64,000 bases of DNA from NCBI GenBank assembly GCA_020351835.1, contig CP070669.1, positions 102,782 to 166,781 of the forward strand, read 5' to 3'. Every line of letters begins with the position of its first letter. Position 1 is the stretch's first letter. A program made the translations under genes and the position numbers. This document shows, in pieces, positions 6,264 through 34,009 of the stretch. Source of the stretch: Nitrospirota bacterium (lineage in GTDB: Bacteria > Nitrospirota > Thermodesulfovibrionia > Thermodesulfovibrionales > BMS3Bbin05). The notes below the pieces were generated by a model that did no database searches, was not told the origin of the DNA, and saw only the letters and a program-made list of their open reading frames with translations.

Positions 6264-6280
6264 GAAAAGCTCATCAAAGA

Positions 6281-6793: not shown

Positions 6794-6845
6794 TTCAGGT
6801 GAATGCGAAAGTTATATATCGAAAGAAGGACCGAGGCACAGAGCA

Positions 6846-7303: not shown

Positions 7304-7909
7304 TTGCTGACCTTGTCGAAAAAACAAAGACCACTGCCTAAGCAACCAGGAACACCCTTTAAAGGAAAAGACCGCTTCGGATCAGAAAGGGACAGGGCTA
7401 CACTTATGGCCGATGAGATGGCAATGGCCATGGCAGAGGGCAGGCTTGAAGAGTTCATAGAGTCAGAGATCCCGGATAGTGAACATGCAAGAAAATTGCT
7501 CGAGATGATGATGGGCATGACCGGGATGTCACCTGTTTCAAAGAAAGTTCAAAAAAGCACGAAAAAAGGATCAGGTGTTAAAGTATCACACACGGAAGAC
7601 GACCCAATGAATATTGAAAACGCCTCATCCATGCCATCAAAAGAGATAATGGATGCCGTGAAGGACGGAAGTGTAGGCGATCTTGTTGATCTCTTAAGAA
7701 AGGAACACGACAAGAGGAACCCCGGCAGTTCAGAAGGAACGACTTCCAAACAGCCGCCGTTAAAGGACAAAGGCCTATCCGCGAAAGAAAGAACTATTAT
7801 CGATGAACTGATAAAGATATCCAAAGATAACAGTGTTTCACTTGACTGGATAACGTTGCGAGCACTTCAACATTACATCAAAGAATATAAGAAGACCGGC
7901 AAACTTTAA
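7304..7909 (+). CDS. Hypothetical charged protein
   Basis: Long ORF with an AGGAG upstream. The TTG at 7313 is better spaced from the SD than the TTG at 7304. No domain recognised. Confidence 0.5.
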   Translation: MLTLSKKQRPLPKQPGTPFKGKDRFGSERDRATLMADEMAMAMAEGRLEEFIESEIPDSEHARKLLEMMMGMTGMSPVSKKVQKSTKKGSGVKVSHTEDDPMNIENASSMPSKEIMDAVKDGSVGDLVDLLRKEHDKRNPGSSEGTTSKQPPLKDKGLSAKERTIIDELIKISKDNSVSLDWITLRALQHYIKEYKKTGKL

Positions 7910-8107
7910 TCATGACCTAACAGCTTTTGTAAAATTTCTCTTTATTGCCTCTGCAGAAAGAGGGATAGCCGGCAATGTCTTATTACCTTTTTTCGCGATT
8001 ATATGTATGAACTTAGGCCCCTTCTTTCTGGATCTCAGGGCCTTATTTATTTCATTCTTATCGCTAACCGTATGGATGTTCCTAAGTCCAAATCCACCAG
8101 CTACTGC
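7910..8107 (-). pseudogene. In-frame continuation (65 codons) of the decarboxylase gene beyond the TAA at 8108-8110
   Basis: The same frame after the TAA reads AVAGGFGLRNIHTVSDKNEINKALRSRKKGPKFIHIIAKKGNKTLPAIPLSAEAIKRNFTKAVRS, then TGA at 7910-7912. It has no start codon of its own. The joined length of 374 aa fits the family. Confidence 0.7.
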
Positions 8108-9034
8108 TTAAAGGTTGGCAACTCTATTAGCAGCCGTCGGCTGATCTCCTGTCGAGCTATATACACCGTTGTCGATAAGCACAATAGTGAGGTTCCGGGG
8201 CTTCTTTGCAGCTATGGTCGAAAGAGTCGAAGGGTTCATCAGCAGACTGCCATCTCCATCAATGACCATTACCTCTTTGCTGCATGAGATGGACAGGCCA
8301 AAACCGATCGGTGTAGCCATTCCCATGCTTCCGAGCATATAGAAATTTGAAGGTTGATCTAAAATATCATAGAGTTCTTTAGCGGGGAAACCAAGATTAC
8401 AAACAACAAGCTTGCCCCTAAGGTATCTTTTGATCTCGTTAATAATTTCATATCGGGTCATTCTCCCGGGATGGATACTATTTTCCCTCTTGTCCTTTAT
8501 ACTGAAGGCTCTCCTTTCGCTGATCAGCGGGATATTGATGTGAGATCCTTCCCATACCCTGGGACTCAGCAGAAAAGCATGAATAAGGTTCTTGCTATAG
8601 ACTTTTTGAAGTGGCCCCTTGATCTTATTGATCTCTTTCGCATTCTCGATATTCGTATAGCCTATCCCCGCAGCCTTGAGCAATCCTTCCACATGTTCTC
8701 CCATCGGTACCTGAGCCGCAATAGTTTCCTTATAAACACCTCTATGACTTAAAAAGATCGGCAACGGTAGTTTATAAAATGAGGTCAGGGACAAAAGCGC
8801 ATTTATCATGTTCCCGATGCCTGAGTTCTGCACGATCATCGCGGCTCTATTCCCGGCAAGGGCTACTCCTGCCGATATGCCCACACCGGCCTCCTCGCGC
8901 GACAATCCTACATGTTCAAACTCTGATCTGACAAGCATTATCAGGTTCTTTACCCTTTCGCAGGGCAAGGTAGCTACTACGTCCACACCGCTCTCTCTTA
9001 GAATGCTGACTAGCTCTTCTTCAGGTGATCGCAT
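8108..9034 (-). CDS. Sulfopyruvate/phosphonopyruvate-decarboxylase-like TPP enzyme (fused ComD/ComE-like), ended prematurely by an in-frame TAA
   Basis: N-terminal half is ComD-like (GVDVVATLPCERVKNL...GISAGVALAG). C-terminal half has the TPP motif GDGSLLMNPSTL...LIDNG. At 308 aa it is short for this family; see the extension at 7910-8107. Confidence 0.75.
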   Translation of the reverse strand: MRSPEEELVSILRESGVDVVATLPCERVKNLIMLVRSEFEHVGLSREEAGVGISAGVALAGNRAAMIVQNSGIGNMINALLSLTSFYKLPLPIFLSHRGVYKETIAAQVPMGEHVEGLLKAAGIGYTNIENAKEINKIKGPLQKVYSKNLIHAFLLSPRVWEGSHINIPLISERRAFSIKDKRENSIHPGRMTRYEIINEIKRYLRGKLVVCNLGFPAKELYDILDQPSNFYMLGSMGMATPIGFGLSISCSKEVMVIDGDGSLLMNPSTLSTIAAKKPRNLTIVLIDNGVYSSTGDQPTAANRVANL

Positions 9035-10266
9035 ATGATGCCCTCTATATTCTCATCAGATATGTACTTTGAAATGAATATCGGTTCAACAACATGCCTT
9101 CCCTTATCTTTCTTCAGCCTCACCTCCCCACCACCGGTGATGTTGAGCAATATCTTATCGTTCCTTTTTACTTTATCTTCTTTAGTTGCCCTTAAAAGTG
9201 CTGCAACAGCAACTCCTGACGCAGGAACTATGTCTATTCCTTCCGCCTTCTCAAAAAGGTCCATCGCCTCTATGACCTCATCGTTCTCTATTCCATACAT
9301 CATACCACCCGTAGACTTTAAAGCATCATATACCCCGCCCTGAACCGAATACGCAGGATATCTGTTAGATAGTACCCTTGTGGTTATCTCAGATATAAGT
9401 TCCGGTCTTAGGTCATTCGGGGAGAGCTCACTGCTTCGGGACTCCCATGCTTTGACCATCGGCGCAAAAGGAAGGTTCTGTGCCAGGTGTAACCTGGTCA
9501 TATGCGATCCGTACTTTCCTGTCCTTAGAACTCTCTCGGCCATCTCCCATACCCCGATAGCCCCCGTTCCGCTCCCCACTGCCTGAAAGTAATGATCAGG
9601 AAGTTGCCTCATCACAGAAACCGCCTCCAGAAGAACTGCTCCGAGCCCATCCCTTTTAGCTATATTTTTGACCCCACCTTCAAAAGGCATATCCATTATC
9701 CGGGCTATCCGCTTTGCCATATCGATAGAATCTGCATAATCCCCATCCTCAATAGCGATCGTCGGAATGGCCAGTGATGATTCCAGATACCACATCTCAA
9801 GAAGGCACATCTTCGGCACTACAATGATGACAGGAAATCCGGAAATTACCGAAAGATGGGAAAAGGCCCGTGCAGTATTTCCAGCTGATGCCACTATAAG
9901 ACCCTCGACACCATTTTCTTTTGCATTTTGAAGGACTGCCGCAGCCTCGAACTCCTTGAACGTACATGACTCTATCTTTCCTCCCCTCTCAGGCCAGTAA
10001 CCGTTGAAAGCTATATAAAGGTTTTCAAGCCCTGCCGATGACGCGAACCTCTCAGACCTGAACACAACAGGGCCTGGCTGTTTGAACAAAGGGTCATGTA
10101 CTGGCAACCAGTCAAATCTCCACAGCCCTTCCCTGTCAGACCTGAAAGGGTCTTCAGATGAATATTCGGTCACTAAAAGCGATCCGACACAGTGTTCACA
10201 GAAGGCGCAATATACCTCCTGTAGTTCCTTTCCGCATTTTCTGCACCTTATATTAAAATGGCTCAT
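9010..10266 (-). CDS. Threonine-synthase-family PLP enzyme, cysteate-synthase-like
   Basis: N-terminal Cys cluster CRKCGKELQEVYCAFCEHC, candidate PLP lysine in TFKEFEA, GSGTGAIG loop, 418 aa. Translationally overlapped (25 nt) with the decarboxylase gene. Confidence 0.55.
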   Translation of the reverse strand: MSHFNIRCRKCGKELQEVYCAFCEHCVGSLLVTEYSSEDPFRSDREGLWRFDWLPVHDPLFKQPGPVVFRSERFASSAGLENLYIAFNGYWPERGGKIESCTFKEFEAAAVLQNAKENGVEGLIVASAGNTARAFSHLSVISGFPVIIVVPKMCLLEMWYLESSLAIPTIAIEDGDYADSIDMAKRIARIMDMPFEGGVKNIAKRDGLGAVLLEAVSVMRQLPDHYFQAVGSGTGAIGVWEMAERVLRTGKYGSHMTRLHLAQNLPFAPMVKAWESRSSELSPNDLRPELISEITTRVLSNRYPAYSVQGGVYDALKSTGGMMYGIENDEVIEAMDLFEKAEGIDIVPASGVAVAALLRATKEDKVKRNDKILLNITGGGEVRLKKDKGRHVVEPIFISKYISDENIEGIICDHLKKS

Positions 10267-10287
10267 ATTATCTTTCCTTACAGGAGA

Positions 10288-11490
10288 TCAAATGCATTCT
10301 GATATAAGCTCCATGATATCTACTATCGTTATCTGTTTTTTATGACCTTTCATTGCCTCGTTAACTTTCGCATAGCATGCAGGACAACTAAGTACAAGCC
10401 TGTCAGCACCTTTCTCCACAGCCTCGTCTATTGTTAGCCTGCCCATTGCGATCGCGTTCTCATGGAATATCTTCCTGGCCGCCCCTCCCGCCCCGCAACA
10501 CCTGGAATTTCTCCCGTGTGCATCAAATTCAATAAGTTCTGCTCCATCAATATGCCTTAATACCTCTCTCGGCTCTTCTATTACACCAACACCTCTGCTT
10601 AAGTAGCATGGGTCATGGTATATGATCTTCTCTTTAAGTCCTTTGCTTAACTTCAATCTCCCTTCTTCCAATGCTTTTTTAACATACTGAGAGATGTGTA
10701 CTATCCTGAACGGCAGTTCACTTCCGTAAAAGATAGGCCAATCTCTGGACATAATGTTCACGCAGCAGGGGCAGGAACAGACAAGTTCCCTCACACCCTT
10801 TTCAGCGTAAGCACTAACAAGTTTATTGGTAAGCTCCTCAAGCATTTCATGCTGCCCAGTTATAAAGAGCGGAAAGCCGCAACATACCTCTTTATCCGCA
10901 GAAAGCATTGTGAACGGTTCACCTATAGCATCAAGAACTAAAACATCGCTCCTTACCATCGGATGAGCTTCATAAGCCCCTGTGCAGCCTGCATAGTATG
11001 CGATCTCGCTTTGCTCAGCTATCTTTATTTCATCAGGGAACCATGTCTTGAACCTTTCTTCAGCAGGTTCGTTATACGGATTTCCGGTGTCAGAAATTGC
11101 CTTCTGCATTTCACGCTGAGCACCGAAGGGGCCGATACCTCTTTTTACCATCTCCCTTCTTAAAGCCGGCCACAGCCTCTGGGTATCAAGTCCTACAGGA
11201 CATATCTCGCCACAGGCACCACAAGTTGTACACTCAAACACCGCCTCGGCAAAATCCTTAAGCAGCTTTTCATCAATATCTTTTTTGCCGAATATCCTTG
11301 CTTTCAGGCTATCAGTACTGTCAATGAACTCCTTATAGATCTTAATTTTCTCAGGTGTTGAGATGTCGGCATTTCCTGTTACCATCTGCACAGGGCAATG
11401 CTTCAAACACTCCCTGCAATCCGTGCAGCCCTTTATCTCCATGACCTGCTTTTTCGAGAGGTCTTTTATGAAAGATCTTTTATTCTTCAT
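10288..11490 (-). CDS. HdrD/DsrK-like iron-sulfur protein (2x[4Fe-4S] ferredoxin motifs plus two CCG domains)
   Basis: CTDCRECLKHCP and CTTCGACGEICP motifs. CCG motifs: VCCGFP...CSCPCC and RCCGAGG...SCPAC. Confidence 0.85.
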   Translation of the reverse strand: MKNKRSFIKDLSKKQVMEIKGCTDCRECLKHCPVQMVTGNADISTPEKIKIYKEFIDSTDSLKARIFGKKDIDEKLLKDFAEAVFECTTCGACGEICPVGLDTQRLWPALRREMVKRGIGPFGAQREMQKAISDTGNPYNEPAEERFKTWFPDEIKIAEQSEIAYYAGCTGAYEAHPMVRSDVLVLDAIGEPFTMLSADKEVCCGFPLFITGQHEMLEELTNKLVSAYAEKGVRELVCSCPCCVNIMSRDWPIFYGSELPFRIVHISQYVKKALEEGRLKLSKGLKEKIIYHDPCYLSRGVGVIEEPREVLRHIDGAELIEFDAHGRNSRCCGAGGAARKIFHENAIAMGRLTIDEAVEKGADRLVLSCPACYAKVNEAMKGHKKQITIVDIMELISECI

Positions 11491-12202
11491 GTCCCAAAGG
11501 TACGAACGTATCGTCCCGTTCTCTCGCTTCGATCATTACTATGGGGGCTGCGAGTATATGAGATGGGAGGAACAGTAAGAGCACAAGAAATAGAATATAG
11601 TGCAATAAGAACACGGGATCAAGCGGCAAAGGATTAGGATCGAATGCAAGAACTCCAAGTACGTAATGCTTGATGTCGATCACATCGGGCCTCACAAAAT
11701 ACCTCATTATCACTCCTGTTGCTCCCAAAATGAATATAACCGATACCAGAACAAGGTTGCGTACAGAGAAATACTCTCCTTTTTCGCTGATGACCAGACG
11801 AACTATAAGTATGTATAAGAGAGACAATGGAAGCACATATCCTGCATGCTTTCCTATGCAGTTAAGCTCCATTACTATCCCGGGAACAGGTTGCATAATA
11901 TACCTTAAGTGACCTAGCAATACGAGCGCAAAGGAAACATGAAAGACCCACTCTCCTATCCATAAAGCACGATTCACTCTTAACAGCCTTCTGAATAAAA
12001 TAATATCAAGTATCGCATTTAACAATATCTTCGCTTTCTTAACACGGCTCTTTGCCAGTGGTCGATAATGCGGTTCAGAATGGCCGCATACAAGTACTAT
12101 TGCAGAAATGCCTCTCCAGTAAGCAACAGCAAGAATCCCATAAGTTATTCCCGTTACCAGTATCTCCATAGCTTTACTATAGCACGTAGATCCGTCCGCC
12201 AT
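11480..12202 (-). CDS. NarI/DsrM/HdrE-like integral membrane (putative cytochrome b) subunit
   Basis: 240 aa with about 5 hydrophobic helices carrying conserved-looking His residues (HVSFALVLLGHLRY, LLHYILF, PSHIL). There is an 11-nt overlap with the HdrD/DsrK-like gene. Confidence 0.7.
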   Translation of the reverse strand: MADGSTCYSKAMEILVTGITYGILAVAYWRGISAIVLVCGHSEPHYRPLAKSRVKKAKILLNAILDIILFRRLLRVNRALWIGEWVFHVSFALVLLGHLRYIMQPVPGIVMELNCIGKHAGYVLPLSLLYILIVRLVISEKGEYFSVRNLVLVSVIFILGATGVIMRYFVRPDVIDIKHYVLGVLAFDPNPLPLDPVFLLHYILFLVLLLFLPSHILAAPIVMIEARERDDTFVPLGHEE

Positions 12203-12226
12203 TGACAGATCTTGAGCATCGATCGG

Positions 12227-12553
12227 TCAGTCCCTGCTATCATCCGATATAAATTCGATAGATACTTTCCTGGGAACGGCAAGTCCAGCCTCGACCTCGA
12301 GCGCTTTAAGGATGCCTGCCGGTACCGGGCAGGACACATGCTTCAAGCAGTTAGAGCCCGCTGAATAGACAGGATTATCAAGGATCCTTTTGAAGGCATC
12401 CATGAAGGCCAGTTCAGGCAGTTCCTTACCAAGCTTTTCGACCATCTCGCAGTCAGAGGTTATTTTTAGATCGAAAACCTTGTCCTCTTTCCTGGTGACC
12501 TCTATCTCGGTCAGCAGGCCACATGCTCCCGGATCTATTTTTATCTTTGTCAT
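12227..12553 (-). CDS. Small Cys-containing hypothetical protein
   Basis: 108 aa with four Cys (GACG, SDCE, SNCLKHVSCP). Embedded between the activase gene and the membrane redox genes. Family not recognised. Confidence 0.6.
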   Translation of the reverse strand: MTKIKIDPGACGLLTEIEVTRKEDKVFDLKITSDCEMVEKLGKELPELAFMDAFKRILDNPVYSAGSNCLKHVSCPVPAGILKALEVEAGLAVPRKVSIEFISDDSRD

Positions 12554-12608
12554 AACAGTAAAAATTGGACCGAATACTGCCGGCTCTGATACTGACAGCC
12601 AGGCAATA

Positions 12609-14585
12609 CTACCCCTTAACCGTCACCTGAGCATTGCTCTTTTCAAGCATGTTCTTCAGGTTAGGGAAGTTGTCCTTCATGTGGGGTATATGCATCGCCA
12701 TCATGAACTCCTTTTCGAACTCCGGTTCAATAGCTATCTCCACAAAGTTCACCCATCGGGCCTTTTCCTTGGCCTCCAGCCTCTTCGCCCTGCTCAGCAA
12801 GGTCATTATGGCTCCGTCCCCGGCCGCGTTACCCACGGCGTATACTTTCTCAATATCACAGTCAGGGAACATCCCCAGCGTTAACGCCGATCTTGTATCT
12901 ATATGGCTGCCGAACGCACCTGCCAGTACAACCCGGTCAAGTGTCGTTATACCGAGCTTTTTCATCATAAGCTTTGCTCCGGCATAAAGGGCTCCCTTTG
13001 CGAGCTGAAGTGCACGCACATCTCCCTGGGTTACCGTAATATCCGCTCCGATCGATGTCTCATCAGCCCATGCAAGTACGTATTCAGGTTTGCCGTCTGC
13101 ATCCAGTCTTACCCTGGGTGTATCCAGATCCTTCACTATCTTGCCGGATTTGTCTATTATTCCTGCTTTGAACATTTCGGCGATAACATCGATTATCGCT
13201 GATCCGCATATTCCCTTCGCATCGATCTTCTCTATATGGGTATGCCAGTCCGCCTTTCCTATCACCTTGTATCTGGGCTCCTTTGTGTCCGGATCTATCT
13301 CTACTGTTTCTATCGCTCCGGGTGCAGCTCGCATTCCGAACTTTATCTGTGCTCCTTCGAACGCCGGGCCTGTAGCACAAGATGTTGAGTATACCCCGTT
13401 CCTGTTCCCGAGAAGGAGCTCACCGTTAGTTCCAATATCGATTATCAGGACCATATCATCTACGTTATAAGGTTCTTCAGCAATAAGCACACCTACATTA
13501 TCAGCGCCAACGAAACCCGCCTCTATAGGAAGCACATGCACATAGGAAGCGGGATTTATATTTATATTAATATCGCGCGCCTTAATGTCCATCGGGTCCT
13601 GCACGGCCGGAATAAATGGTGACCTTCCTATATACACCGGGTTAAAACCAAGGAATATATGGTGCATTGCGGTATTGAAAACGACGGTCATGTCCACTAT
13701 CTGGTGTCCTCCGTCCGACCCGTCTATCTTAATCTCTGAGGTTATCTTGTCGATTATTTCGTTCAATCCTCCGATTATCGCTTTCTGCATTGTCTCAAGA
13801 CCGTCACTGTTCATCATCGCGTATGTTATCCGGGACATGACATCTTCACCATATGGTACCTGAGGGTTCATCATGGACTCGGTATTAAGCACCTTGCCCG
13901 TAACAAGGTCGCATAGATAAGCTGCAACTGTTGTCGTGCCGACATCAATAGCGATACCATATGTATTCTCAATGAATCCAGGTTCAACCTTTATTATTTC
14001 CCTGCCTTCCCTGACTGTCACGGTACACTTCCATTCACCTTTGCGCAGAGCATCCTGAAGGTCCTTTTGTACCACATAATCTATGATGATCCCCTCTAAT
14101 CCGTATTGCTCCTTTAAGAGTTCTCTGATCCTTTCATAATCTCCCTTTGAGAGATCATGGAGTGTCGGGGGCTCCATCTCTATGAAATATTTCCTCACGG
14201 AAGGATCTATAGGAATGGTTATATCTTTTGCCGCTTTTCTTACGATCTGCTTTCCCGCCCGTGATTTCTCGGGAACAAATAGCTTCACATCTCCATGAAC
14301 GGTAGCAGCACACGCAAGCCTCATCTGAGGCCCTTCCTCAGATTTTATGAACTTTTTTTCAACTTCCGATAATTCGCTCAGATGCGACATCCTGGAGTCC
14401 ATTGCGTCCTTCTCAAAGTATCCTTCCTCTACCCTGACCTTGCATTTCCCGCATGTACCCTTTCCGCCGCAGATGGATTCAAGGTCAACGCCAAGACCCT
14501 GTGCTGCCTCAAGAAGCGTCTTGTTCTCCTCTATTTCACCCCTGCTTCCAGAGGGTTGAAAGTTCACTTTATATTTCTTGCTCAT
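12609..14585 (-). CDS. Corrinoid reductive activase (RamA/AcsV-type: [2Fe-2S] ferredoxin plus ASKHA ATPase)
   Basis: N-terminal plant-type ferredoxin motif CGGKGTCGKCKV...LACA. Actin-fold phosphate motifs GIAIDVGTTT and IDIGTNGE. 658 aa. Confidence 0.85.
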   Translation of the reverse strand: MSKKYKVNFQPSGSRGEIEENKTLLEAAQGLGVDLESICGGKGTCGKCKVRVEEGYFEKDAMDSRMSHLSELSEVEKKFIKSEEGPQMRLACAATVHGDVKLFVPEKSRAGKQIVRKAAKDITIPIDPSVRKYFIEMEPPTLHDLSKGDYERIRELLKEQYGLEGIIIDYVVQKDLQDALRKGEWKCTVTVREGREIIKVEPGFIENTYGIAIDVGTTTVAAYLCDLVTGKVLNTESMMNPQVPYGEDVMSRITYAMMNSDGLETMQKAIIGGLNEIIDKITSEIKIDGSDGGHQIVDMTVVFNTAMHHIFLGFNPVYIGRSPFIPAVQDPMDIKARDINININPASYVHVLPIEAGFVGADNVGVLIAEEPYNVDDMVLIIDIGTNGELLLGNRNGVYSTSCATGPAFEGAQIKFGMRAAPGAIETVEIDPDTKEPRYKVIGKADWHTHIEKIDAKGICGSAIIDVIAEMFKAGIIDKSGKIVKDLDTPRVRLDADGKPEYVLAWADETSIGADITVTQGDVRALQLAKGALYAGAKLMMKKLGITTLDRVVLAGAFGSHIDTRSALTLGMFPDCDIEKVYAVGNAAGDGAIMTLLSRAKRLEAKEKARWVNFVEIAIEPEFEKEFMMAMHIPHMKDNFPNLKNMLEKSNAQVTVKG

Positions 14586-14621
14586 TCAGCATCCTCCATT
14601 GAATTGATCGAATATTTGATC

Positions 14622-15281
14622 TTATGTCGCAACCGACCGTTGTCTCCTTTCATTGCCGTTCCTGCCGTAAGGGCAGATGTTTATACATAACCCGCAATTC
14701 GGCTTGTCATTCACCGCTTTAGAGTTCTCCTTATACGACCTGCATCGTTCTGTCATTATAAGTTCCGGAAAAGGCTCTTTCCTGGACCATGTATCACCTG
14801 TGATAGCCTTTGATGGGCAGTGCTCAACACAAAGCCTGCAATTACCGCAAAGGCTCTCCCTTATAGGTTCATCGGCCTTAAGAGGCGCATCTGTCAGTAC
14901 CGTCGCTAATGAGAGCCTCGGACCAAATCTTTCACTGATGAGAAGTCCGTTCCTGCCTATCCACCCCAGTCCGGCACAGGTTGCCGCCACTTTATGAGTA
15001 AAAAGCGGGTACAACTTCGATTGGAACTTATCCTTGATCCTGTCCGAATCCGGAGGAATACAAAAGTATCTGTGTCCCATGTCCTTAATATAAGATGCGG
15101 CAACTTTTTGGATAATGCCGATCTTTTCCAGTGTGTTCTCTTTAAGGTTACCTTTGATCCCTATAGAAATAGCCTTTCCAAGATGACTGATGTCCTCTTC
15201 GAGAGCCTCTTCAACAACGGCAAAGCCTACTATAGTGGCCCCTTCATCCAGCAGTATCTTTCGAAGGTCCTCGCCGATCAC
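14622..15281 (-). CDS. Short QueG/RdhA-family protein with 2x[4Fe-4S]
   Basis: GLGWIGRNGLLISERFGPRLSLATVLTD, followed by CGNCRLCVEHCP and CGLCINICP. Only 219 aa. There is a 4-nt overlap with the corrinoid protein gene. Confidence 0.7.
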   Translation of the reverse strand: MIGEDLRKILLDEGATIVGFAVVEEALEEDISHLGKAISIGIKGNLKENTLEKIGIIQKVAASYIKDMGHRYFCIPPDSDRIKDKFQSKLYPLFTHKVAATCAGLGWIGRNGLLISERFGPRLSLATVLTDAPLKADEPIRESLCGNCRLCVEHCPSKAITGDTWSRKEPFPELIMTERCRSYKENSKAVNDKPNCGLCINICPYGRNGNERRQRSVAT

Positions 15282-15970
15282 TCCTTGTTCTTTCCTTCTG
15301 CATCATCTTTCATCTCTTTGAGGGAACCTATCATCTTGATAGCATCAGAAAGCGCGTTAGTAGCATCATCCGCATACCCGTCCGCTCCCCATTTCTCTGC
15401 AATATCCTTTGATACCGGGGCACCACCTATCATTATTTTCACGTTCGGGTTCTTTGCCTTGAGGTTATCAATTACCTTCTGCATTCCCACCATGGTAGTT
15501 GTCATCATGGCAGACAAACATACGAGTTCCGAATCCGTCTTTATCTGTTCTTCAACGAACTGGTCAAGAGGGACATCACGCCCAAGGTCATATACCTCAA
15601 ATCCCGCGACATCGAACATCATCTTCACAATGTTCTTGCCTATGTCGTGCACATCTCCCTCGACCGTCCCTATCACCACTGACCCTTTAACCCCCAGGTC
15701 AAGCTGCTCAACGTGAGGCTTAAGTATATCCAGGCCGGCATAAAGTGCGTCCGCGCACATTAAAAGCTCCGGGACAAAGTATTCCTGAGCCTCGAACAAC
15801 TTCCCTACCTCCTGCATACCTACTACAAGTCCATCGAAAATGGCATCATTGGCATTTATACCTTCATCCAGGACCTCTTGTGCCCCCTCCTTGGCGGTAT
15901 CTTCATCATATTCTATGACCGCCTGCTTCAGCTTCTCCAGAAGCTCCTTCTTTCTCTCTTCTGTCGCCAT
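15278..15970 (-). CDS. Methyltransferase cognate corrinoid protein (B12-binding)
   Basis: Helical cap domain followed by GTVEGDVHDIGKNIV (DxHxxG), LSAMMTTT and IMIGGAP. 230 aa. Confidence 0.92.
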   Translation of the reverse strand: MATEERKKELLEKLKQAVIEYDEDTAKEGAQEVLDEGINANDAIFDGLVVGMQEVGKLFEAQEYFVPELLMCADALYAGLDILKPHVEQLDLGVKGSVVIGTVEGDVHDIGKNIVKMMFDVAGFEVYDLGRDVPLDQFVEEQIKTDSELVCLSAMMTTTMVGMQKVIDNLKAKNPNVKIMIGGAPVSKDIAEKWGADGYADDATNALSDAIKMIGSLKEMKDDAEGKNKE

Positions 15971-15973
15971 TTC

Positions 15974-17008
15974 TTACCTCCTGTGTTCTTTTACTGTGTC
16001 TATCATTGCTTTAAAATTCTCGGGCGGTACTGTAGGCCAGATATCGCATCCGGGCCATACCGCGCTAACTCCGTCATCTATACATTTTGTGATAGCTTCC
16101 CTTATGAGGTCAGGTGTCCCTGCAACGAGCACATTATAGGGATCAAAGTTCCCGAACACTAAAGCATCATTTCCAAGCTTCTTTCTGGTCTCCGTAATAT
16201 CGTTCTTTTGGTCAACACTAATGGCGTCTGCCCCCGACTCCATCATGAACCCTACGATATCATTTGTCTTACCGCACACATGAACCACGGATGGGACATT
16301 AAGCTCTTTGATGATATTTTGCAGGTGGGGCAGGATCAGGTTCTTGAAGACCCGGGGACTCAGGACATCGGATGTCGCTCCCATCTCCCTTACCGTAATG
16401 AAATCTATCCCCGCATCTTCATATACCTTAGCTACCTTAACTATAACTCCTGACAATATTTCAAGGAGCTTTCCCACCTTATCAGCTTTCTTAAAAGATA
16501 GTTTCAGCAGGTCATTAAGCTCCATTATCTGTCCGGCCAGGGTAAAAGGTCCAAGCACATATGAACCTACCGGTATCTCACCCCCGGCCTCCTTTTTAGC
16601 TATTCCTATTGCCTCGTGCATCAGGGGAACCCTGCCCCTCCCGACCAGGTCTTCAGGAACTGATATCTCCATCTCATCTTCGTTCTTTATCACCTTCTCC
16701 TTAATGGTCGGATAAAGAAGGTCCTCGGAGTGAGGATAGGTGTTGATAACCGCCCCAAGTGCTTCAGCTTCTACACACAGATCGAACGGGAGCACACATG
16801 AATCAAATCCGAACAACTTCGGCGTAGTCACCGCCGTCTCAGCCATCTGCTTAGCGTCGAGATGGACCTGGGCAAACTTATATCCCAACTCGTCGAGACC
16901 GGTAGTAGTAACATTTCCCATACCGCTGAAACAGGGTACCCTGTCGGTCTCCTCTTTCTTGAATAGCCTGGTTACTCTGTCTTTAGAGCTCATCTCAGAT
17001 ACAGACAT
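15974..17008 (-). CDS. Uroporphyrinogen-decarboxylase-family methyltransferase (MtaA/MtbA/MtsA-like)
   Basis: 344 aa. Candidate Zn ligands VVHVCGKT (HxC) and VWPGCDIWP (C), as in methylcobamide:thiol methyltransferases. Confidence 0.85.
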   Translation of the reverse strand: MSVSEMSSKDRVTRLFKKEETDRVPCFSGMGNVTTTGLDELGYKFAQVHLDAKQMAETAVTTPKLFGFDSCVLPFDLCVEAEALGAVINTYPHSEDLLYPTIKEKVIKNEDEMEISVPEDLVGRGRVPLMHEAIGIAKKEAGGEIPVGSYVLGPFTLAGQIMELNDLLKLSFKKADKVGKLLEILSGVIVKVAKVYEDAGIDFITVREMGATSDVLSPRVFKNLILPHLQNIIKELNVPSVVHVCGKTNDIVGFMMESGADAISVDQKNDITETRKKLGNDALVFGNFDPYNVLVAGTPDLIREAITKCIDDGVSAVWPGCDIWPTVPPENFKAMIDTVKEHRR

Positions 17009-17064
17009 TATTCATCTCCTTTCAATCATAATTAATGGTATACCTATCGTAAATTTGTTCCTTT

Positions 17065-18027
17065 TTATTTCTTTGCTTTCTTCCTTCCTCCGCCTTCTTC
17101 CAGCTTCTGTATGAACTCGGCAAACAGCTTTCTGATCGGCAGGTCTTCGTTCCCGGGTATCATTCCGGTCTCATCATATATAAAAGTAGACAACAGAGTA
17201 TGGGCAGTAGCCACTGCAGGGAAGATCCTCGAAGCCGTTACAATGGGCCCGTAGAAGTTAAAATCGCTCCATATGGCCGACGCCATTCCCTGAGCTACCG
17301 CATCCATGGCCCTGAAACCGTCGAGTCCCCATATCTCCCTGGCCTCTTTCCACATATGTGTGCCATTAGAGTATGCCCCCCCGCACGGCAGCCCATGCTT
17401 TTCCTTTATTATCCTGTTAGCTATCAACGAGAATGATGTCGACGGCAGGTTCATCACCGAGGTATCTACGATCACCGTATCAAAGCCATCTGCGCCCTGG
17501 GAATAGATCGATTCGAACGAGCTTAACCTTCCTGCAGGTGACTGGTCCTGGTCGTCGAACGCCTGAATAACGACATGTTTTATTCCGAGGTCCTTCAGCC
17601 GCTGGACCTGACCTTTGATGTCCTTATCCCATGGAGTAATGCTGTTATAAAGGAACTTGTCCTGTACTCCAAGCTTTGCGACATACTCTGTTGCCTTAGC
17701 CCTTTTCTCTGCTACCCACATGTCTATCCCAAAGGGCATCTCTGTCGTCTCGAGAAAGAAATCTATATAAACCTGTGCTTCCTCAGGTGTATTAGCAACC
17801 ATTGCGACCATACCGGGGATCCCGGTAGACCGGTTGAGCTCTTCCTGCTTTCTTATAAGCTCTGCTGCTCTCTTGCGGTCGAACTTGCCCGACTTTCTGT
17901 CATCAAGGATCCTGTCCTTATTATGGAACATGGACGCGATCATTAAAGGCGGGTTTTCCCCGGGTCTTCCCCCGACCTTGATCCCTGCTATATCAAAAAC
18001 CTTCTGCTCTGACTTTAAATTGAACAT
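17065..18027 (-). CDS. MtrH-like methyl-pterin:corrinoid methyltransferase
   Basis: N-terminus MFNLKSEQKVFDIAGIKVGGRPGENPPLMIASMFH closely parallels archaeal MtrH (MFKFDKKQEVFEIGGVKFGGQPGEYP...). 320 aa. Confidence 0.85.
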   Translation of the reverse strand: MFNLKSEQKVFDIAGIKVGGRPGENPPLMIASMFHNKDRILDDRKSGKFDRKRAAELIRKQEELNRSTGIPGMVAMVANTPEEAQVYIDFFLETTEMPFGIDMWVAEKRAKATEYVAKLGVQDKFLYNSITPWDKDIKGQVQRLKDLGIKHVVIQAFDDQDQSPAGRLSSFESIYSQGADGFDTVIVDTSVMNLPSTSFSLIANRIIKEKHGLPCGGAYSNGTHMWKEAREIWGLDGFRAMDAVAQGMASAIWSDFNFYGPIVTASRIFPAVATAHTLLSTFIYDETGMIPGNEDLPIRKLFAEFIQKLEEGGGRKKAKK

Positions 18028-18062
18028 CTATGCTCCTTTCAAGAAATGATGATGAGTTCTCT

Positions 18063-18093
18063 TATCAAATAAAGAGTCCTGCAAGGGCAGGAC
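18063..18093 (-). terminator. Intra-operon intrinsic terminator candidate
   Basis: Minus-strand RNA reads GUCCUGC-CCUU-GCAGGAC followed by UCUUUAUUUGAUA. Located between the AhpD-like gene and the mtrH-like gene. Confidence 0.5.
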
Positions 18094-18110
18094 GATCATT
18101 CGCCCTGCCC
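18085..18110 (-). promoter_or_regulatory. Alternative (antiterminator-like) hairpin overlapping the terminator 5' arm
   Basis: Minus-strand RNA reads GGGCAGG-N12-CCUGCCC. Its 3' arm shares 18085-18093 with the terminator stem, so the two folds are mutually exclusive. Confidence 0.4.
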
Positions 18111-18126
18111 TCACAGTTAAGGTCTA

Positions 18127-18642
18127 TCAGTAAACGCCGTGATCGAACTTTGTTTCGGGTAGATATTCCCAATCCTCTCCATTACGGTATTTCGCCTCAA
18201 TATCGAGACACTTCAGCGCGTACTCGAACGCATACGGAATGCCTGGTCCGCCCGGAACAAAGCCGGCCAGTATCATTCCTACTGCAGCCGCTTCAAAGAT
18301 CTCTCCGGTCGTAGCTCCCGCGTCTATAGCCGGAATAACGTGGATGATACACCTCGGTGAGCAGTATGCAACGCCTCCGGACATGAACATCAGCTCCTTT
18401 ACCTTCTTTGAGAGCGCACCGTCGCCGAAGATGCTCTCATAGAAATCAGCGAACGTCTTTCCGGGGACAGGTGTTACAGTGTTGATGATCTTGAACATGC
18501 GAGGTACAAAACCGCAATGTTCCTTCATGTACGCATTGACTTCATCTACCGACATCTTTGATGCATCTGACATAAGCTCCTCCTTCATTTCATTTCCCGG
18601 CTCACCGGCCAGAAATTTCTTAATGCTTTCAAAAATACCCAT
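18127..18642 (-). CDS. Carboxymuconolactone-decarboxylase/AhpD-like family protein
   Basis: AYCSPRCIIHV, a CxxxCxxH variant of the AhpD CxxCxxxH core. The ORF opens with GTG at 18648, but ATG at 18642 sits 5 nt after a perfect GGGAGG. Confidence 0.7.
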   Translation of the reverse strand: MGIFESIKKFLAGEPGNEMKEELMSDASKMSVDEVNAYMKEHCGFVPRMFKIINTVTPVPGKTFADFYESIFGDGALSKKVKELMFMSGGVAYCSPRCIIHVIPAIDAGATTGEIFEAAAVGMILAGFVPGGPGIPYAFEYALKCLDIEAKYRNGEDWEYLPETKFDHGVY

Positions 18643-18728
18643 TGTCACCTCCCTTTACGGGAACTTAAGCTACCTGCCTCACCTCCTCTCATATACAAAC
18701 ACACATAATATTTGGATTTCGTTCCTCT

Positions 18729-19757
18729 TTATAGCTTCCACTCTGTTGCAATCTGAATGAACTTCTGAATGTTCTCATAAGGAACCGTTGGCGGGATGTC
18801 GCATCCCGGCATAAGAACAAAAGCACCATCGGTACCGGCTGTTTCTATTATTTTTTTGCATGAGCTCTCAACATCGCTTGCACTTCCCTGCAGCATTATC
18901 TGTACAGGATCTACGTTGCCGCCAAAACATATTTTGCCGTGCAATACTTCTTTAGCCTTTGCTATATCGGTCTTGTGATCAAGACTGATGCAACTGGCAC
19001 CAGTGTCAGGGAAAAGCTCAAGCCTGTCAGTAGTATTCCCGCAAATATGCAAAAGAGTATGTGCGTTCTTCGATTTGGCCCAGTCTGTGAACTTCTTGAG
19101 GGCTGGCACAGCGAACTGCTCGAACTGTTTTTTGGAGATAAGATCACCCGAAGCGGTCGGGTCTGCAAGGCTTATCACCTCAAGCGTTCCGTCGCTGACT
19201 ATGGGTTCGTAAAGATGGATAAGGAGATCACATGCAAAATCAACTATCTTCTCGACGAGAGCCGGTTTCTTGAACGTAGCCTTCATCATGGCCTCTTCAC
19301 CGACAAACCGGGCACCAAGTGTAAAAGGTCCCCACGCAGTGAGGGTAACGATATATTTATCGCCTATCTCCTTTTTTGTTCTCCGCAATGCCTCTTTTGT
19401 AGTATTAATGGTCTCGTCTTTATCAATATCTTCAATATTAAGACCATCTATCTCTTCTTCTGAACTTATGAGATGATCTTCGAGATCAGGGGCACCTACC
19501 TCCCGGAACTTGATCTTTCCTCCAAGAGCTGAGGCATGAAAATTGTTGTATCCCGACCCTGCATAAACGATATCGCACTTCAGCCTCTCACTGTTCTCTA
19601 CGAGCACTTTTGTCATCTTGCCGGCATCCTTTGAGATCTCTTCAAAGGTAGTCCCTGAGCTGTTAATGCTCCACATGCCTCCGCCAAAAAGAGTTACCGG
19701 TACCCTTTCAGGCTTGCCCCCTTCATAAGCCTTTAGAATTATTTCCCTCGGTGTCAT
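18729..19757 (-). CDS. Uroporphyrinogen-decarboxylase-family methyltransferase (MtaA/MtsA-like), paralogue 2
   Basis: 342 aa. LLHICGNT (HxC) and LMPGCDIPP (C) are candidate Zn ligands. Strong SD (GGAGGAG). Confidence 0.85.
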   Translation of the reverse strand: MTPREIILKAYEGGKPERVPVTLFGGGMWSINSSGTTFEEISKDAGKMTKVLVENSERLKCDIVYAGSGYNNFHASALGGKIKFREVGAPDLEDHLISSEEEIDGLNIEDIDKDETINTTKEALRRTKKEIGDKYIVTLTAWGPFTLGARFVGEEAMMKATFKKPALVEKIVDFACDLLIHLYEPIVSDGTLEVISLADPTASGDLISKKQFEQFAVPALKKFTDWAKSKNAHTLLHICGNTTDRLELFPDTGASCISLDHKTDIAKAKEVLHGKICFGGNVDPVQIMLQGSASDVESSCKKIIETAGTDGAFVLMPGCDIPPTVPYENIQKFIQIATEWKL

Positions 19758-19769
19758 ATACTCCTCCTT

Positions 19770-20135
19770 TCAAATAAGAACAGAACTTCTGTTTCGAATT
19801 ATTTCTTTGAACATTGCCAGGAAACTGTCTATCTCTTTGGGAGATCCTGTGACATATACTCCATCTTTTAGCCTGGTCTTTTCCGATACGCTATCTGTCA
19901 AAAGAAATATCGGGGCAGATGAGATCGTATCCTTCATTATTGAAGCAGCCTCATACGCATTAAGTCCTATATTCCTTGTGTCGAGTATTACTGCGTCGTA
20001 CCTGTTTGCAAGAAACTCTCTTACTGCATCTGATATATATTCGATAGTAACAACCTCTATACCCCCGTCCCGGATAGGACCATACAGCTCCTTTATAAGC
20101 AACGGTTCCTGAGAGCACAGAAGGATCCTTTTCAT
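19770..20135 (-). CDS. Stand-alone receiver-like (CheY-fold) protein, degenerate
   Basis: 121 aa. AVILDTR retains an acceptor-like Asp, but the N-terminal acidic pair and the usual MP motif are missing. Confidence 0.6.
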   Translation of the reverse strand: MKRILLCSQEPLLIKELYGPIRDGGIEVVTIEYISDAVREFLANRYDAVILDTRNIGLNAYEAASIMKDTISSAPIFLLTDSVSEKTRLKDGVYVTGSPKEIDSFLAMFKEIIRNRSSVLI

Positions 20136-20149
20136 CGCAGGAAATTAAG

Positions 20150-20165
20150 AGCAACTTCAATGCCA
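20150..20165 (-). promoter_or_regulatory. Sigma-54 (-24/-12) promoter
   Basis: Minus strand reads TGGCAT-TGAAG-TTGCT, with exact GG-N10-GC spacing. It is the only full match I found by eye on either strand. It is intergenic, directly upstream of the 13-gene operon. Confidence 0.6.
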
Positions 20166-20266: not shown

Positions 20267-20345
20267 CATCTTTTATCAATACTGCTAATGAAACATTGCG
20301 CTCCCGCACTATTCAATGGGGCACAAATATTGCTTTTCCGTTGAT

Positions 20346-21218
20346 ATGAGAACAACCATTGTATGCGGAATGCTGGGCTCAGGAAAAACCACTTTTATAG
20401 GAAACGTTCTGAAAGAGAGCAAAGAGAGGACCGTTGTATTGGTCAACGACTTCGGAAGCGCTGGAATAGACGGTGAGATACTGTCTGTAGACGGCATAGA
20501 TACGGTAGAACTTCCGAGCGGTTGCGTATGTTGCACACTGAAATTCGATCTCATAACGACAATAGAAAAGATTATAAAAAAATTTGACCCTCTTAGCCTC
20601 TATATCGAACCAAGCGGTGTCGCCTCACCTTCGGGTGTTTTAGAAGCGCTCGAGTCATTGAACATATCAAATGTGCTCGTGGTTGGTATAATTGATGCCA
20701 CAGAATTCATAGATATATACGAATCCGAGATGTACGGCAACTTCTTTATTGACCAGGTCGCACGATCGGACGTCTTATTGATCAATAAAACTGACCTTAC
20801 CGGATCCGGGAATGTCGAAAGGACACTGAAAATACTCCAAGAGATGAACGGTAAGGCCATAATGATACCTACCGTAAATGCCGAGATGGACCATATTCCG
20901 AAACACCGGGATAATATAAAGAAGGTTACCGGCAGTCCCTGCCATGATGTCCATCTCAGCTCCCTGTCCTTTATCATTAGAAATAAGTCGCCTCTATCCG
21001 TCTTAAATGACCTGTTCGAGAATTTATCCTCGGGCACTTACGGGAATGTCGTCAGGGCAAAGGCACTGGTCCATACCGATGAGGGGCCTTTCCGCTTTGA
21101 CCTGTCGTTCGGTCATCTATCCGTAGAACCGTTCAGAAGCAGCATTACCGACAGCCGCCTCGTTGTAATTGGCAGTTCTCTGAATGAAATGAAGTTATCA
21201 GAAGATATTGATAATTAA
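20346..21218 (+). CDS. CobW/COG0523-family GTPase metallochaperone
   Basis: P-loop GMLGSGKTTF, GCVCC motif, NKTD. The ORF opens at 20316, but MRTTIVCG at 20346 matches the family N-terminus. Confidence 0.85.
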   Translation: MRTTIVCGMLGSGKTTFIGNVLKESKERTVVLVNDFGSAGIDGEILSVDGIDTVELPSGCVCCTLKFDLITTIEKIIKKFDPLSLYIEPSGVASPSGVLEALESLNISNVLVVGIIDATEFIDIYESEMYGNFFIDQVARSDVLLINKTDLTGSGNVERTLKILQEMNGKAIMIPTVNAEMDHIPKHRDNIKKVTGSPCHDVHLSSLSFIIRNKSPLSVLNDLFENLSSGTYGNVVRAKALVHTDEGPFRFDLSFGHLSVEPFRSSITDSRLVVIGSSLNEMKLSEDIDN

Positions 21219-33934: not shown

Positions 33935-34009
33935 AGCATGATTATAGCAGGATTGCTGATTTTGTATAAATGAACACGTACCGTTGTTAGAGAAAAACCT
34001 CTGCACAGG

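Follow-up and report, generated by a model that had tools for sequence, protein, structure and literature searches.

A conserved gene cluster of Nitrospirota joins a corrinoid methyl-transfer system to an HdrDE-like membrane pair and to predicted genes for a coenzyme M precursor

The DNA analysed here, referred to as the window, is a 64,000-nt stretch of the genome of a Nitrospirota bacterium (assembly GCA_020351835.1, contig CP070669.1, positions 102,782–166,781, forward strand). The listing of its open reading frames (ORFs) includes 13 genes that lie on the minus strand in a shared orientation and run from position 20135 down to position 7910 (Table 1). The intergenic distances, from gene 1 to gene 13, are 12, 80, 99, 56, 3, −4, 36, 55, 24, −11, 21 and −25 nt. 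A first reading of the DNA letters (hereafter, the original prediction) had claimed 13 minus-strand ORFs at these positions, with junctions of −25 to +99 nt, and had proposed a protein family for each. All the ORFs are present, the measured spacers match the claimed range, and scoring with Pfam and NCBIfam profiles reproduced the family list. Protein families were assigned with these profiles, bit scores being quoted against the curated cut-offs. Invariant residues were read from alignments of 7–13 orthologues per protein; ten proteins were compared in this way. The genes are handled as two modules because the cluster breaks at a single site, between genes 9 and 10. Judged by the families of its products, module A (genes 1–9) is a corrinoid methyltransferase system, while module B (genes 10–13) would encode a membrane pair resembling the heterodisulfide reductase HdrDE, a cysteate synthase and a fused sulfopyruvate decarboxylase (ComDE).

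Table 1. Positions, strands and main characteristics of the cluster genes and of associated features in the window
Feature	Position	Strand	Characteristics
Gene 1, degenerate receiver-like protein (121 aa)	19770–20135	−	Response_reg 20.6 bits, below the cut-off of 30.2
Gene 2, UroD-family MtaA-like methyltransferase 1	18729–19757	−	URO-D 201.5 bits; Zn ligands His237-Cys239-Cys319 (predicted)
Gene 3, CMD/AhpD-like protein	18127–18648	−	CMD 25.6 bits (cut-off 23)
Gene 4, MtrH-family methyltransferase	17065–18027	−	PF02007 190 bits; NF002142 350.5 bits (cut-off 287)
Gene 5, MtaA/CmuA-family methyltransferase 2	15974–17008	−	Zn ligands His243-Cys245-Cys321 (predicted); TIGR01463 and NF004889
Gene 6, corrinoid protein	15278–15970	−	B12-binding_2 and B12-binding domains; DxHxxG present as GDVHDIG
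Gene 7, short QueG/RdhA-core protein	14622–15281	−	Two [4Fe-4S] motifs; 4-nt overlap of its start with gene 6
Gene 8, RACo-type ATP-dependent corrinoid reductive activase	12609–14585	−	N-terminal [2Fe-2S]; RACo_C_ter 322 bits
Gene 9, DUF6951 small protein	12227–12553	−	PF22263 106 bits
Gene 10, NarI/DsrM/HdrE-like membrane cytochrome b	11480–12202	−	Five predicted transmembrane (TM) segments; weak Nitrate_red_gam and DsrM matches
Gene 11, HdrD-type Fe-S protein	10288–11490	−	Two [4Fe-4S] motifs and two complete CCG motifs; CCG 79 bits, two stretches
Gene 12, cysteate synthase	9010–10266	−	TIGR03844 468.1 bits (cut-off 324.9)
Gene 13, fused sulfopyruvate decarboxylase ComDE	7910–9034	−	Overlaps gene 12 by 25 nt; TAA at 8108–8110
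Sigma-54 type −24/−12 promoter	20151–20165	−	TGGCAT-N5-TTGC, 15 nt before the gene 1 ATG
Hairpin in the gene 3–4 spacer	18079–18116	−	17 bp, GC-rich (10 GC pairs), then a T-rich tail; candidate internal terminator/attenuator
CobW/COG0523-type metallochaperone GTPase	20316–21218	+	Divergent from gene 1; also found upstream of it in 20 or more related loci
PocR-PAS hybrid histidine kinase	21315–23738	−	N-terminal PocR sensory domain, two PAS; between the CobW-like and SsuA-like genes
SsuA-family periplasmic binding protein	23883–24797	−	Profile match
GAF/PAS histidine kinase	24866–27358	+	Profile match
NtrC-type sigma-54 activator	27355–28692	+	Profile match

Two genes of module A, genes 2 and 5, encode UroD-family enzymes similar to the methyltransferase MtaA. 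The product of gene 5 reaches two subfamily cut-offs (TIGR01463, 248.8 bits versus 235.4; NF004889, 267.2 versus 244) and matches the structure of M. mazei MtaA (4ay7) from end to end, with E = 1e-44. That of gene 2 scores 177 bits with TIGR01463, under the cut-off, and matches 4ay7 with E = 5e-27. The His-x-Cys...Cys zinc ligands are invariant in both proteins (8 orthologues of gene 2 and 10 of gene 5) and align with the HICG and PGCG motifs of 4ay7. In the UroD superfamily, the His-Cys-Cys set marks S- and Se-methyltransferases, the Cys being replaced in O-demethylases (PMC10418091). The two proteins are 25% identical, so they would be either old paralogues or of separate origins. Gene 4 encodes an MtrH-family enzyme that does not reach the MtgA equivalog (165 bits versus 550). 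From its family, it is inferred to link the methyl-corrinoid with a pterin that, in a bacterial host, is presumably tetrahydrofolate. In one of the related loci (which are referred to by L numbers), L006, an MTHFR gene lies directly upstream of the cluster.

The DxHxxG corrinoid protein that had been claimed for this cluster was found in gene 6. Its H108 is invariant in 12 orthologues and, after a generic corrinoid-protein model, its next-best NCBIfam matches are MtgC and MtbC. The activase encoded by gene 8 also matches Raco_middle (182 bits), RACo_linker (83 bits) and Fer2 (36 bits); it scores 486 bits with the AcsV model, below the cut-off of 800, and 113 bits with the RamA model TIGR04270, whose cut-off of 500 is not reached. 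On the basis of these assignments, module A appears to be a complete corrinoid methyl-transfer system, with two putative zinc-dependent MtaA-like enzymes, an MtrH-family enzyme, a corrinoid protein, an activase and a set of small proteins.

Among these small proteins, that of gene 3 stands out for its conservation: 110 of 173 alignment columns are invariant in 10 orthologues, the largest fraction among the ten proteins compared. It had been described as an AhpD-like thiol protein. The family assignment holds; the motif is an invariant C96-x3-C100-x2-H103, not CxxC. Its PDB matches to AhpD/CMD proteins are weak, and its best NCBIfam matches, to the AhpD domains of arsenite methyltransferase, arsenosugar biosynthesis and selenoprotein methyltransferase families, score 22–25 bits, far below cut-off. 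The gene 7 protein scores 70 bits with TIGR02486 and 62 bits with QueG, both under cut-off, and matches the QueG structure 5d6s with E = 3e-12. Seven of its eight cluster Cys residues are invariant, the remaining one being present in 11 of 12 orthologues. In the DUF6951 protein of gene 9, Cys11, Cys35, His72 and Cys75 are invariant. Nearly all of the top 25 Foldseek matches to its AlphaFold2 model (pLDDT 85.8) are IscU, SufE, CsdE or related proteins; these matches are weak (E ≥ 0.16, with TM-scores of 0.40–0.53 for the leading IscU/SufE-type structures). As a lead rather than a finding, this model points to a possible role as a small carrier of Fe-S or persulfide. In the receiver-like protein of gene 1, Asp52 is invariant (seven orthologues) and the acidic pocket is not retained.

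Genes 10 and 11, which overlap by 11 nt in essentially all loci, head module B. In the cytochrome b of gene 10, the His pairs H88/H98 (segment 2) and H201/H215 (segment 5) are invariant in 13 orthologues, a pattern from which haem binding as in NarI, HdrE and DsrM is inferred. A PDB sequence search with this protein gave no match. In the gene 11 product, the eight ferredoxin-type Cys and both CCG motifs are intact in 11 orthologues. Read from the sequence, these CCG motifs are the HdrB/HdrD signature for non-cubane clusters that carry out disulfide chemistry; the PDB matches were headed by 9ojn, followed by HdrB chains. The claim of an HdrDE-type membrane pair is supported by the full HdrD/HdrE cofactor-binding signature. 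The DsrMK equivalog models were not reached (DsrK, 95.7 bits versus 400; DsrM, 57.4 versus 300), and neither the window nor the annotated flanking regions of relatives contain a dsrJOP, dsrC or dsrAB gene.

Ordinary searches with HdrD, cysteate synthase and DUF6951 were saturated with close Nitrospirota relatives; distant HdrD contexts were obtained from representatives clustered at 50% identity. Among these representatives, the Nitrospirota orthologues of gene 11 collapse to a single full-length one (66%). The next relatives are 42–43% identical, followed by Desulfobaccales (38%), the HdrD of Ca. Argoarchaeum and Ca. Ethanoperedens (35%, with 246 bits for the cluster that contains them) and Asgard proteins (34%). 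Methanosarcinales HdrD is among the ten nearest full-length representatives, at 35%. The relatives with 42–43% identity are stand-alone pairs of HdrD and a membrane protein, found in non-methanogenic marine archaea (L104, L105) and on a cytochrome-oxidase contig (L106), and no sulfonate genes were found near them. This distribution suggests that an HdrDE-like, quinone-linked module was fixed by the Nitrospirota lineage beside cysteate synthase and ComDE.

Some other connections of the pair were considered and set aside. Two Desulfosarcina loci (L019, L020) have an HdrD-like gene (30%) near RACo and DUF6951 genes, and proved uninformative: with GlcD-type FAD oxidases and GcvH as partners, these HdrD-like genes would belong to a lactate/glycolate-type system. 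A role of the HdrDE-like pair as the electron source for RACo is disfavoured, as the pair travels with cysteate synthase and ComDE and not with RACo (L003). Homology of the HdrD-like protein to MMP16/ComF was rejected, MMP16 being a member of COG1900, a family without relation to CCG proteins.

Whether the pyridoxal phosphate enzyme of gene 12 is a cysteate synthase or a threonine synthase (ThrC) had been set beforehand as a test. The protein passes the cysteate synthase cut-off (Table 1), whereas its score with NF006050, the threonine synthase model that fits best, is 91 bits where 303 are required. Gene 13 overlaps gene 12 by a length that is constant among relatives (23 to 25 nt in 26 loci). 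Its ORF ends after 308 codons at an in-frame TAA (codon 309), and the homologous frame continues to a TGA at 7910–7912. When an amino acid is put in place of the stop, the thiamine pyrophosphate enzyme that had been predicted to be a sulfopyruvate decarboxylase passes both equivalog cut-offs (alpha, 184.6 bits versus 147.95; beta, 233.6 versus 221.5), and does not reach that of phosphonopyruvate decarboxylase (204 versus 312.5). The orthologue in L001 scores 174.5 bits (alpha) and 221.9 bits (beta). The family predicted for positions 9034–7910 therefore stands, but a single open frame does not. In L107 (GCA_975955985.1), a locus reached through DUF6951 homology and 99.06% identical over 8.3 kb, the codon is TCA (Ser) and the gene is intact, with 374 aa; 11 further aligned ComDE orthologues are uninterrupted at this position. 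Since L107 has TCA, the stop would be a C-to-A change private to this assembly, either a very recent strain-specific nonsense mutation or a base-call error.

By these classifications, genes 12 and 13 account for steps one and three of the phosphoserine ('type 2') pathway, in which phosphoserine and sulfite yield sulfoacetaldehyde, the precursor of coenzyme M (CoM). The transaminase that acts between cysteate synthase and ComDE is a housekeeping enzyme in methanogens, and the final step of CoM synthesis needs two electrons and sulfur (PMC9457059). In methanogens, this thiolation is performed by a COG1900 enzyme (PMC12068725; PMC4045070). In M. acetivorans, the cysteate synthase gene MA3297 and the comDE gene MA3298 are adjacent, and both are up-regulated in an hdr mutant together with methyltransferases and sulfonate transporters (PMC12713407). 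By analogy, the Nitrospirota cluster appears to join physically the categories that are co-induced in M. acetivorans when Hdr is impaired.

Conservation of the synteny in related genomes, also set beforehand as a test, was observed across many Nitrospirota genomes. About 25 further full or near-full loci and about 70 shorter contigs show the same gene order. These contexts come from metagenome-assembled genomes (MAGs) and metagenome contigs, and their taxonomy is that given by the names in the source records; wherever the source names the host, it is a Nitrospirota, Thermodesulfovibrionales or Ca. Sulfobium MAG, without exception. Among the loci fetched via three of the proteins, all 13 genes were found in identical order in GCA_035498715, GCA_040961345, a 241-kb ENA/NCBI contig and JGI 3300003542. 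When each GTDB species was represented by one genome, 12 Nitrospirota/Thermodesulfovibrionia loci were recovered, and all those long enough show the same arrangement. With the AhpD-like gene as the anchor, 80 loci were retrieved from metagenomes; they keep the order from 1 to 13 as far as the contig reaches. Further, at least 120 distinct 90%-identity clusters with at least 66% identity exist for each of HdrD and cysteate synthase, and the sources of DUF6951 homologues include Candidatus Sulfobium sp. and Thermodesulfovibrionales. The median identity to the window proteins ranges from just 42% (cytochrome b) to 82% (corrinoid protein), so the gene order has been kept across substantial divergence.

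A sigma-54 promoter had been placed at about position 20150. Within the window by itself the motif is not significant (4 matches versus 2.7 expected), but its conservation gives strong support. An element of the form TGGCA[CT]-N5-[TA]TGC lies at most 80 nt from the gene 1 ATG in 47 of 52 related loci, its distance being 12–17 nt in 46 of the 52; the background of 102 matches in 2.0 Mb (both strands) leads to an estimate of about 0.1 expected. Because the −12 element is so close to the gene 1 ATG, the mRNA leader would have about 4 nt and no Shine-Dalgarno sequence. The gene 1 mRNA would thus be nearly leaderless, which is unusual for a sigma-54 transcript.

The hairpin that follows gene 3 has a position shared by most relatives (L001, L004, L006, L008, L010, L011, L013), although its sequence is not conserved; in L006 it has a canonical T-run. 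The mean folding energy of the 60 nt after the gene 3 stop is −19.7 kcal/mol (n = 86), compared with −9.4 to −13.0 after five other genes, and the gene 3–4 spacer has a median of 151 nt across loci and is almost never 60 nt or shorter. The structure may be an internal terminator, an attenuator or a processing site. An Rfam scan of the window and four relatives, which sought a riboswitch or known RNA in this spacer, gave no match. Scans for sigma-70 promoters and terminators over the operon did not exceed the shuffled expectation, the gene 3 hairpin alone standing out. Since a strong, conserved hairpin follows gene 3, a single 13-gene transcript is unproven. Genes 1–3, 4–9 and 10–13 likely form separate transcript units, with read-through possible. 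The spacer between genes 9 and 10 is just 24–76 nt in the window, L021/L022 and L107, and long in some other relatives. The original prediction of one 13-gene operon is sustained as to order and strand, and weakened as to a single transcript by the hairpin and these long spacers.

Several genes near the cluster recur in relatives. The SsuA-family binding protein, the GAF/PAS kinase and the NtrC-type activator form a trio located 3.7 kb upstream of the cluster in the window and downstream of it in L004 and L005; matches to an Ssu-like binding protein and a kinase recur near the cluster in L065, L071, L074, L076 and L095. The members of the trio are probable regulators of the gene 1 promoter. 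A gene for an ATP:corrinoid adenosyltransferase (CobO/BtuR) lies shortly downstream of the cluster (6281–6793, minus strand), and its presence, with that of the CobW-like GTPase, suggests a local supply of cobalt, zinc or corrinoid. The gene that adjoins comDE, convergent to it (7304–7909, plus strand), codes for a 201-aa protein with no match in Pfam or NCBIfam; an orthologue is found at the same place in L001, L004, L006, L009, L011, L021 and L107. Genes related to c-di-GMP, coding for a GAF-GGDEF cyclase, PilZ and receiver-PilZ proteins, are dense near the cluster (5163–7199 and 33251–35041). An MreB/actin-like gene adjoins the receiver-PilZ gene, and L021 shows synteny for the PilZ and GGDEF genes that lie downstream of the cluster. 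In L059 and L018, extra divergent UroD-like and corrinoid-protein genes upstream of the cluster suggest additional corrinoid methyltransferase systems in those genomes.

All the parts of the cluster belong to known families; what is new is their fixed combination and its host. In agreement with the original prediction that no such system had been described, a literature search found no account of the cluster or of CoM-type genes in Nitrospirota. The MtaA/MtbA/MtsA systems of methanogens share with module A the UroD-fold His-Cys-Cys enzymes, the DxHxxG corrinoid protein and an ATP-dependent activase, and gene 5 aligns with M. mazei MtaA over its full length while reaching the subfamily cut-offs. 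The Nitrospirota system differs from them in its bacterial host, its activase of the RACo/AcsV rather than the RamA type, its MtrH-family enzyme and the lack of an MCR gene in the window; moreover, the MtaA and MtbA equivalog cut-offs are missed, and CoM is a putative substrate. Closer in composition are the type 1 mlp clusters (Kountz and Balskus 2023, PMC10418091), which also have at least two His-Cys-Cys MtaA-like enzymes, a corrinoid protein and a bacterial-type RACE activase (genes 2, 5, 6 and 8 here), as well as sulfur-metabolism neighbours and a proposed methyl-S/Se role in anaerobes. Unlike the Nitrospirota cluster, they have no folate methyltransferase and no conserved gene order, and occur mostly in Firmicutes (PMC10418091). 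That report does not mention Nitrospirota, cysteate synthase or MtrH, and refers to heterodisulfide reductase in the general background only. The glycine betaine system MtgABC and the Mtv/Odm O-demethylases share an MtrH-family enzyme, a corrinoid protein and a RACo activase with module A; in the Nitrospirota cluster, however, the substrate-side enzymes are UroD proteins of the S type, not of the MttB or O-demethylase type, and sulfonate and Hdr-like genes are attached.

The relatives of module B are equally recognizable. The type 2 CoM biosynthesis genes of Methanosarcinales and Methanomicrobiales (MA3297, MA3298, MA3299) likewise have cysteate synthase followed by a fused ComDE, and genes 12 and 13 pass the equivalog cut-offs; here, by contrast, there is no adjacent COG1900 comF gene, the HdrDE-like pair lies directly upstream and the host is bacterial. 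Two archaeal routes of CoM biosynthesis have been described, plus a bacterial one (Xanthobacter) from phosphoenolpyruvate, and in these papers bacterial CoM is linked only to alkene/epoxide metabolism (PMC9457059, PMC12068725). Genes 10 and 11 resemble Methanosarcina HdrDE in having two subunits, a cytochrome b with five TM segments and two His pairs, and a partner with two [4Fe-4S] and two CCG motifs. They differ from it in sequence, with 35% identity to Methanosarcinales HdrD and a 50%-identity cluster of their own; the carrier would be menaquinone and not methanophenazine, and there is no evidence for coenzyme B. DsrMK also combine a NarI-type cytochrome b with a CCG Fe-S protein, the differences being equivalog scores below cut-off and the lack of dsrJOP, dsrC or dsrAB genes nearby.

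Taken together, the composition of the cluster suggests that these Nitrospirota make and use a CoM-like thiol. The reading that we favour, tentatively and as somewhat less than an even chance, is methyl transfer between S-methyl compounds and tetrahydrofolate with a self-made CoM-type thiol whose disulfide is serviced by the HdrDE-like complex. Sulfoacetaldehyde would be converted to 2-mercaptoethanesulfonate or a very similar sulfonated thiol, and some relatives may import such a sulfonated compound with an SsuABC-type transporter whose genes lie within the cluster. One of the MtaA-like enzymes would use the thiol as methyl acceptor or donor, and methyl groups would be exchanged among tetrahydrofolate, the thiol cofactor and a compound with an S-methyl (or Se-methyl) group. 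By linking the thiol/disulfide pair of the cofactor to the menaquinone pool, the HdrDE-like complex would keep the cofactor reduced. A CoM-type product is proposed because the sole redox enzyme of module B is of the thiol/disulfide type, because no gene is present for other known fates of sulfoacetaldehyde (module B has none that would turn it into isethionate, taurine, sulfoacetate or acetyl phosphate), and because characterised relatives of the module A enzymes methylate CoM. Under this reading, the thiol may be CoM, either MtaA-like enzyme may use it and the membrane complex may recycle its disulfide. A CoM-like thiol pathway had already been put forward in the original prediction; the enzyme classes and the synteny speak for it, while its single-operon part is weakened.

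A number of observations weigh against this proposal. Passing a methyl group from a thioether on to folate costs about 30 kJ/mol (the Mtr reaction), so the net flow may run from methyl-folate to the thiol, or the donor may be activated; CoM placed between a thioether donor and folate offers no obvious thermodynamic advantage. No gene consuming methyl-CoM is evident, and there is no mcr gene in the window. A COG1900 (ComF/MMP16) gene was found neither in the 64-kb window nor in the annotated 10 kb or so around the cluster in L001, L004, L006, L021, L023 and L107, which leaves the formation of CoM unproven. In the genome of the window itself, the comDE gene is interrupted by a stop codon. Gene 2 misses even the MtaA/CmuA subfamily cut-off of 235.4 bits, and gene 5 remains under the equivalog cut-offs, with 243 bits versus 400 for MtaA_Meth and 192 versus 600 for MtbA (the respective scores of gene 2, 153 and 148, do not reach them either). 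For the related type 1 mlp clusters, a CoM-independent action on methyl-S/Se compounds has been proposed (PMC10418091), and the long gene 9–10 spacer of some relatives speaks against a single operon.

Nor are the two modules always found together. Among the 19 metagenome loci that reach at least 3.5 kb beyond gene 9, 16 have genes 10–12 or 10–13 and three are without part of module B. In L052, the cytochrome b gene is followed by unrelated genes, genes 11–13 being absent; in L072, genes 10 and 11 are missing and gene 9 is directly followed by cysteate synthase and ComDE; in L059, HdrD (gene 11) alone is missing. Conversely, L003 (ENA ERZ27256589 k141_1347037) carries genes 10–13 only. It is 99.75% identical to L001 from about 40 nt past the DUF6951 stop, and has IMP dehydrogenase and other housekeeping genes upstream; either the methyltransferase module is present or absent depending on the strain, or the contig is mis-assembled at the junction. 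Extra genes occupy the gene 9/10 junction in L009 (7258–9233), L012 (4458–9861) and L016 (1282–6250). In all three, the insert contains a second, divergent HdrD/NarI-like pair, about 28% identical to gene 11; in L012 and L016, it also includes a complete SsuABC/TauABC-type ABC transporter, whose binding protein passes the SsuA-family cut-off (196.7 bits versus 163.5) and whose permease is nearest to TauC, SaoP and SsuC. Where Hdr genes are missing (L072, L059), cysteate synthase and ComDE are still attached to module A. The link between module A and cysteate synthase/ComDE is the most persistent one, and the Hdr pair is usual, although locally dispensable.

The separability of the modules bears on a different explanation, which we regard as possible, if rather unlikely: module A alone, as a catabolic or assimilatory unit, would demethylate small S- or Se-methyl compounds directly onto the corrinoid protein and further to tetrahydrofolate, without CoM, and module B would be a separate sulfonate/redox unit. 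The donors would be dimethylsulfide, methanethiol or methylselenides, or the system would work in reverse, methylating sulfide or thiols from methyl-tetrahydrofolate; module B would make, for example, a sulfonated low-molecular-weight thiol, or another sulfoacetaldehyde product, for redox protection. The parting of the modules at gene 9/10 (module B by itself in L003; inserts in L009, L012 and L016) and the retention of module A without genes 11–13 in L052 are consistent with this, as are the weak matches of the AhpD-like protein to the AhpD domains of seleno- and arsenic-methyltransferase families. The type 1 mlp clusters, for which a methyl-S/Se role is proposed, share the core of His-Cys-Cys MtaA-like enzymes, corrinoid protein and RACE activase, and ClMlp2 methylates selenide in vitro (PMC10418091). 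In addition, CoM serves as a general antioxidant thiol in Methanosarcina (PMC12713407). Two independent units would be harder to reconcile with the position of module B directly behind module A in 16 of the 19 informative metagenome loci and in nearly all genome loci, with the shortness of the gene 9–10 spacer in the window, L021/L022 and L107, and with the persistence of cysteate synthase and ComDE beside module A after the loss of Hdr (L072). Further, an MtrH-family folate methyltransferase is present, unlike in the type 1 mlp clusters. If the cluster was instead involved in the methylation or demethylation of a metalloid (arsenic, selenium or tellurium), with a thiol as reductant, the AhpD-like protein handling its disulfide and the HdrDE-like pair regenerating the thiol, the best NCBIfam matches of the AhpD-like protein (arsenite methyltransferase, arsenosugar and selenoprotein methyltransferase families) and the methyl-selenide use proposed for the related mlp clusters (PMC10418091) would be accounted for. 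Those matches, however, are far below cut-off at just 22–25 bits, no ars or sel genes occur in the window, both the binding protein and the transporter belong to sulfonate-type families, and the presence of cysteate synthase and ComDE would be left unexplained; we consider this reading highly improbable.

The absence of a nearby COG1900 gene admits another view of module B, namely that the HdrDE-like pair is itself the missing CoM synthase, carrying out a quinol-driven reductive thiolation of sulfoacetaldehyde in place of COG1900, perhaps with DUF6951 as a sulfur carrier. In methanogens, the COG1900 gene adjoins cysteate synthase and comDE (PMC4045070, PMC12713407); here the Hdr pair is directly upstream of them, and no COG1900 gene is nearby. 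The two electrons and the sulfur required by the last CoM step (PMC9457059) would be compatible with such a role, genes 10–13 are tightly packed and travel without module A in L003, and DUF6951 has an invariant Cys-Cys-His-Cys set and a model like sulfur-handling folds of the IscU/SufE type. Nevertheless, L072 and L059 keep cysteate synthase and ComDE without HdrD, the nearest relatives of the HdrD clade are stand-alone pairs without sulfonate genes, and the fold match of DUF6951 is statistically weak (E ≥ 0.16). We know of no CCG protein that thiolates an aldehyde, and a COG1900 homologue could lie elsewhere in the genome, beyond the 64-kb window. This reading thus seems improbable. To the wider proposal that MCR-free Nitrospirota have a fourth CoM route, based on HdrDE-like thiolation, and rely on CoM to carry methyl groups between the folate branch of the Wood-Ljungdahl pathway and S-methyl compounds, we likewise assign a low probability. 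Finally, unrelated modules that share no function could have come to lie together by chance, as had been allowed for in the original prediction. The modules do occur apart (L003, L052), but their order is conserved among orthologues with median identities of 42–82%, the promoter and the flanking regulators are conserved, and the spacers are short or overlapping. Since the synteny is conserved, the enzymes classify at the equivalog level and the cofactor signatures, including those for zinc and Hdr, are intact, chance is very unlikely, and the least credible of the explanations considered.

Should CoM not be involved, the cluster would remain a bacterial relative of the mlp clusters that is well defined, regulated and previously undescribed, and that has an outlet to folate. 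To our knowledge, the enzymes that degrade methanethiol and dimethylsulfide in sulfate reducers have not been identified, and the cluster is a candidate for the turnover of methylated sulfur by sulfate-reducing Nitrospirota such as Ca. Sulfobium. It is also a candidate for a solution of the last CoM step without COG1900, or for a bacterial CoM-disulfide reductase; if true, the fourth-route proposal would amount to a bacterial, non-methanogenic C1 metabolism that depends on CoM. If methyl transfer with a self-made CoM-type thiol, the reading favoured here, is correct, CoM-type chemistry would extend to anaerobic bacterial C1 and sulfur metabolism in a widespread lineage.

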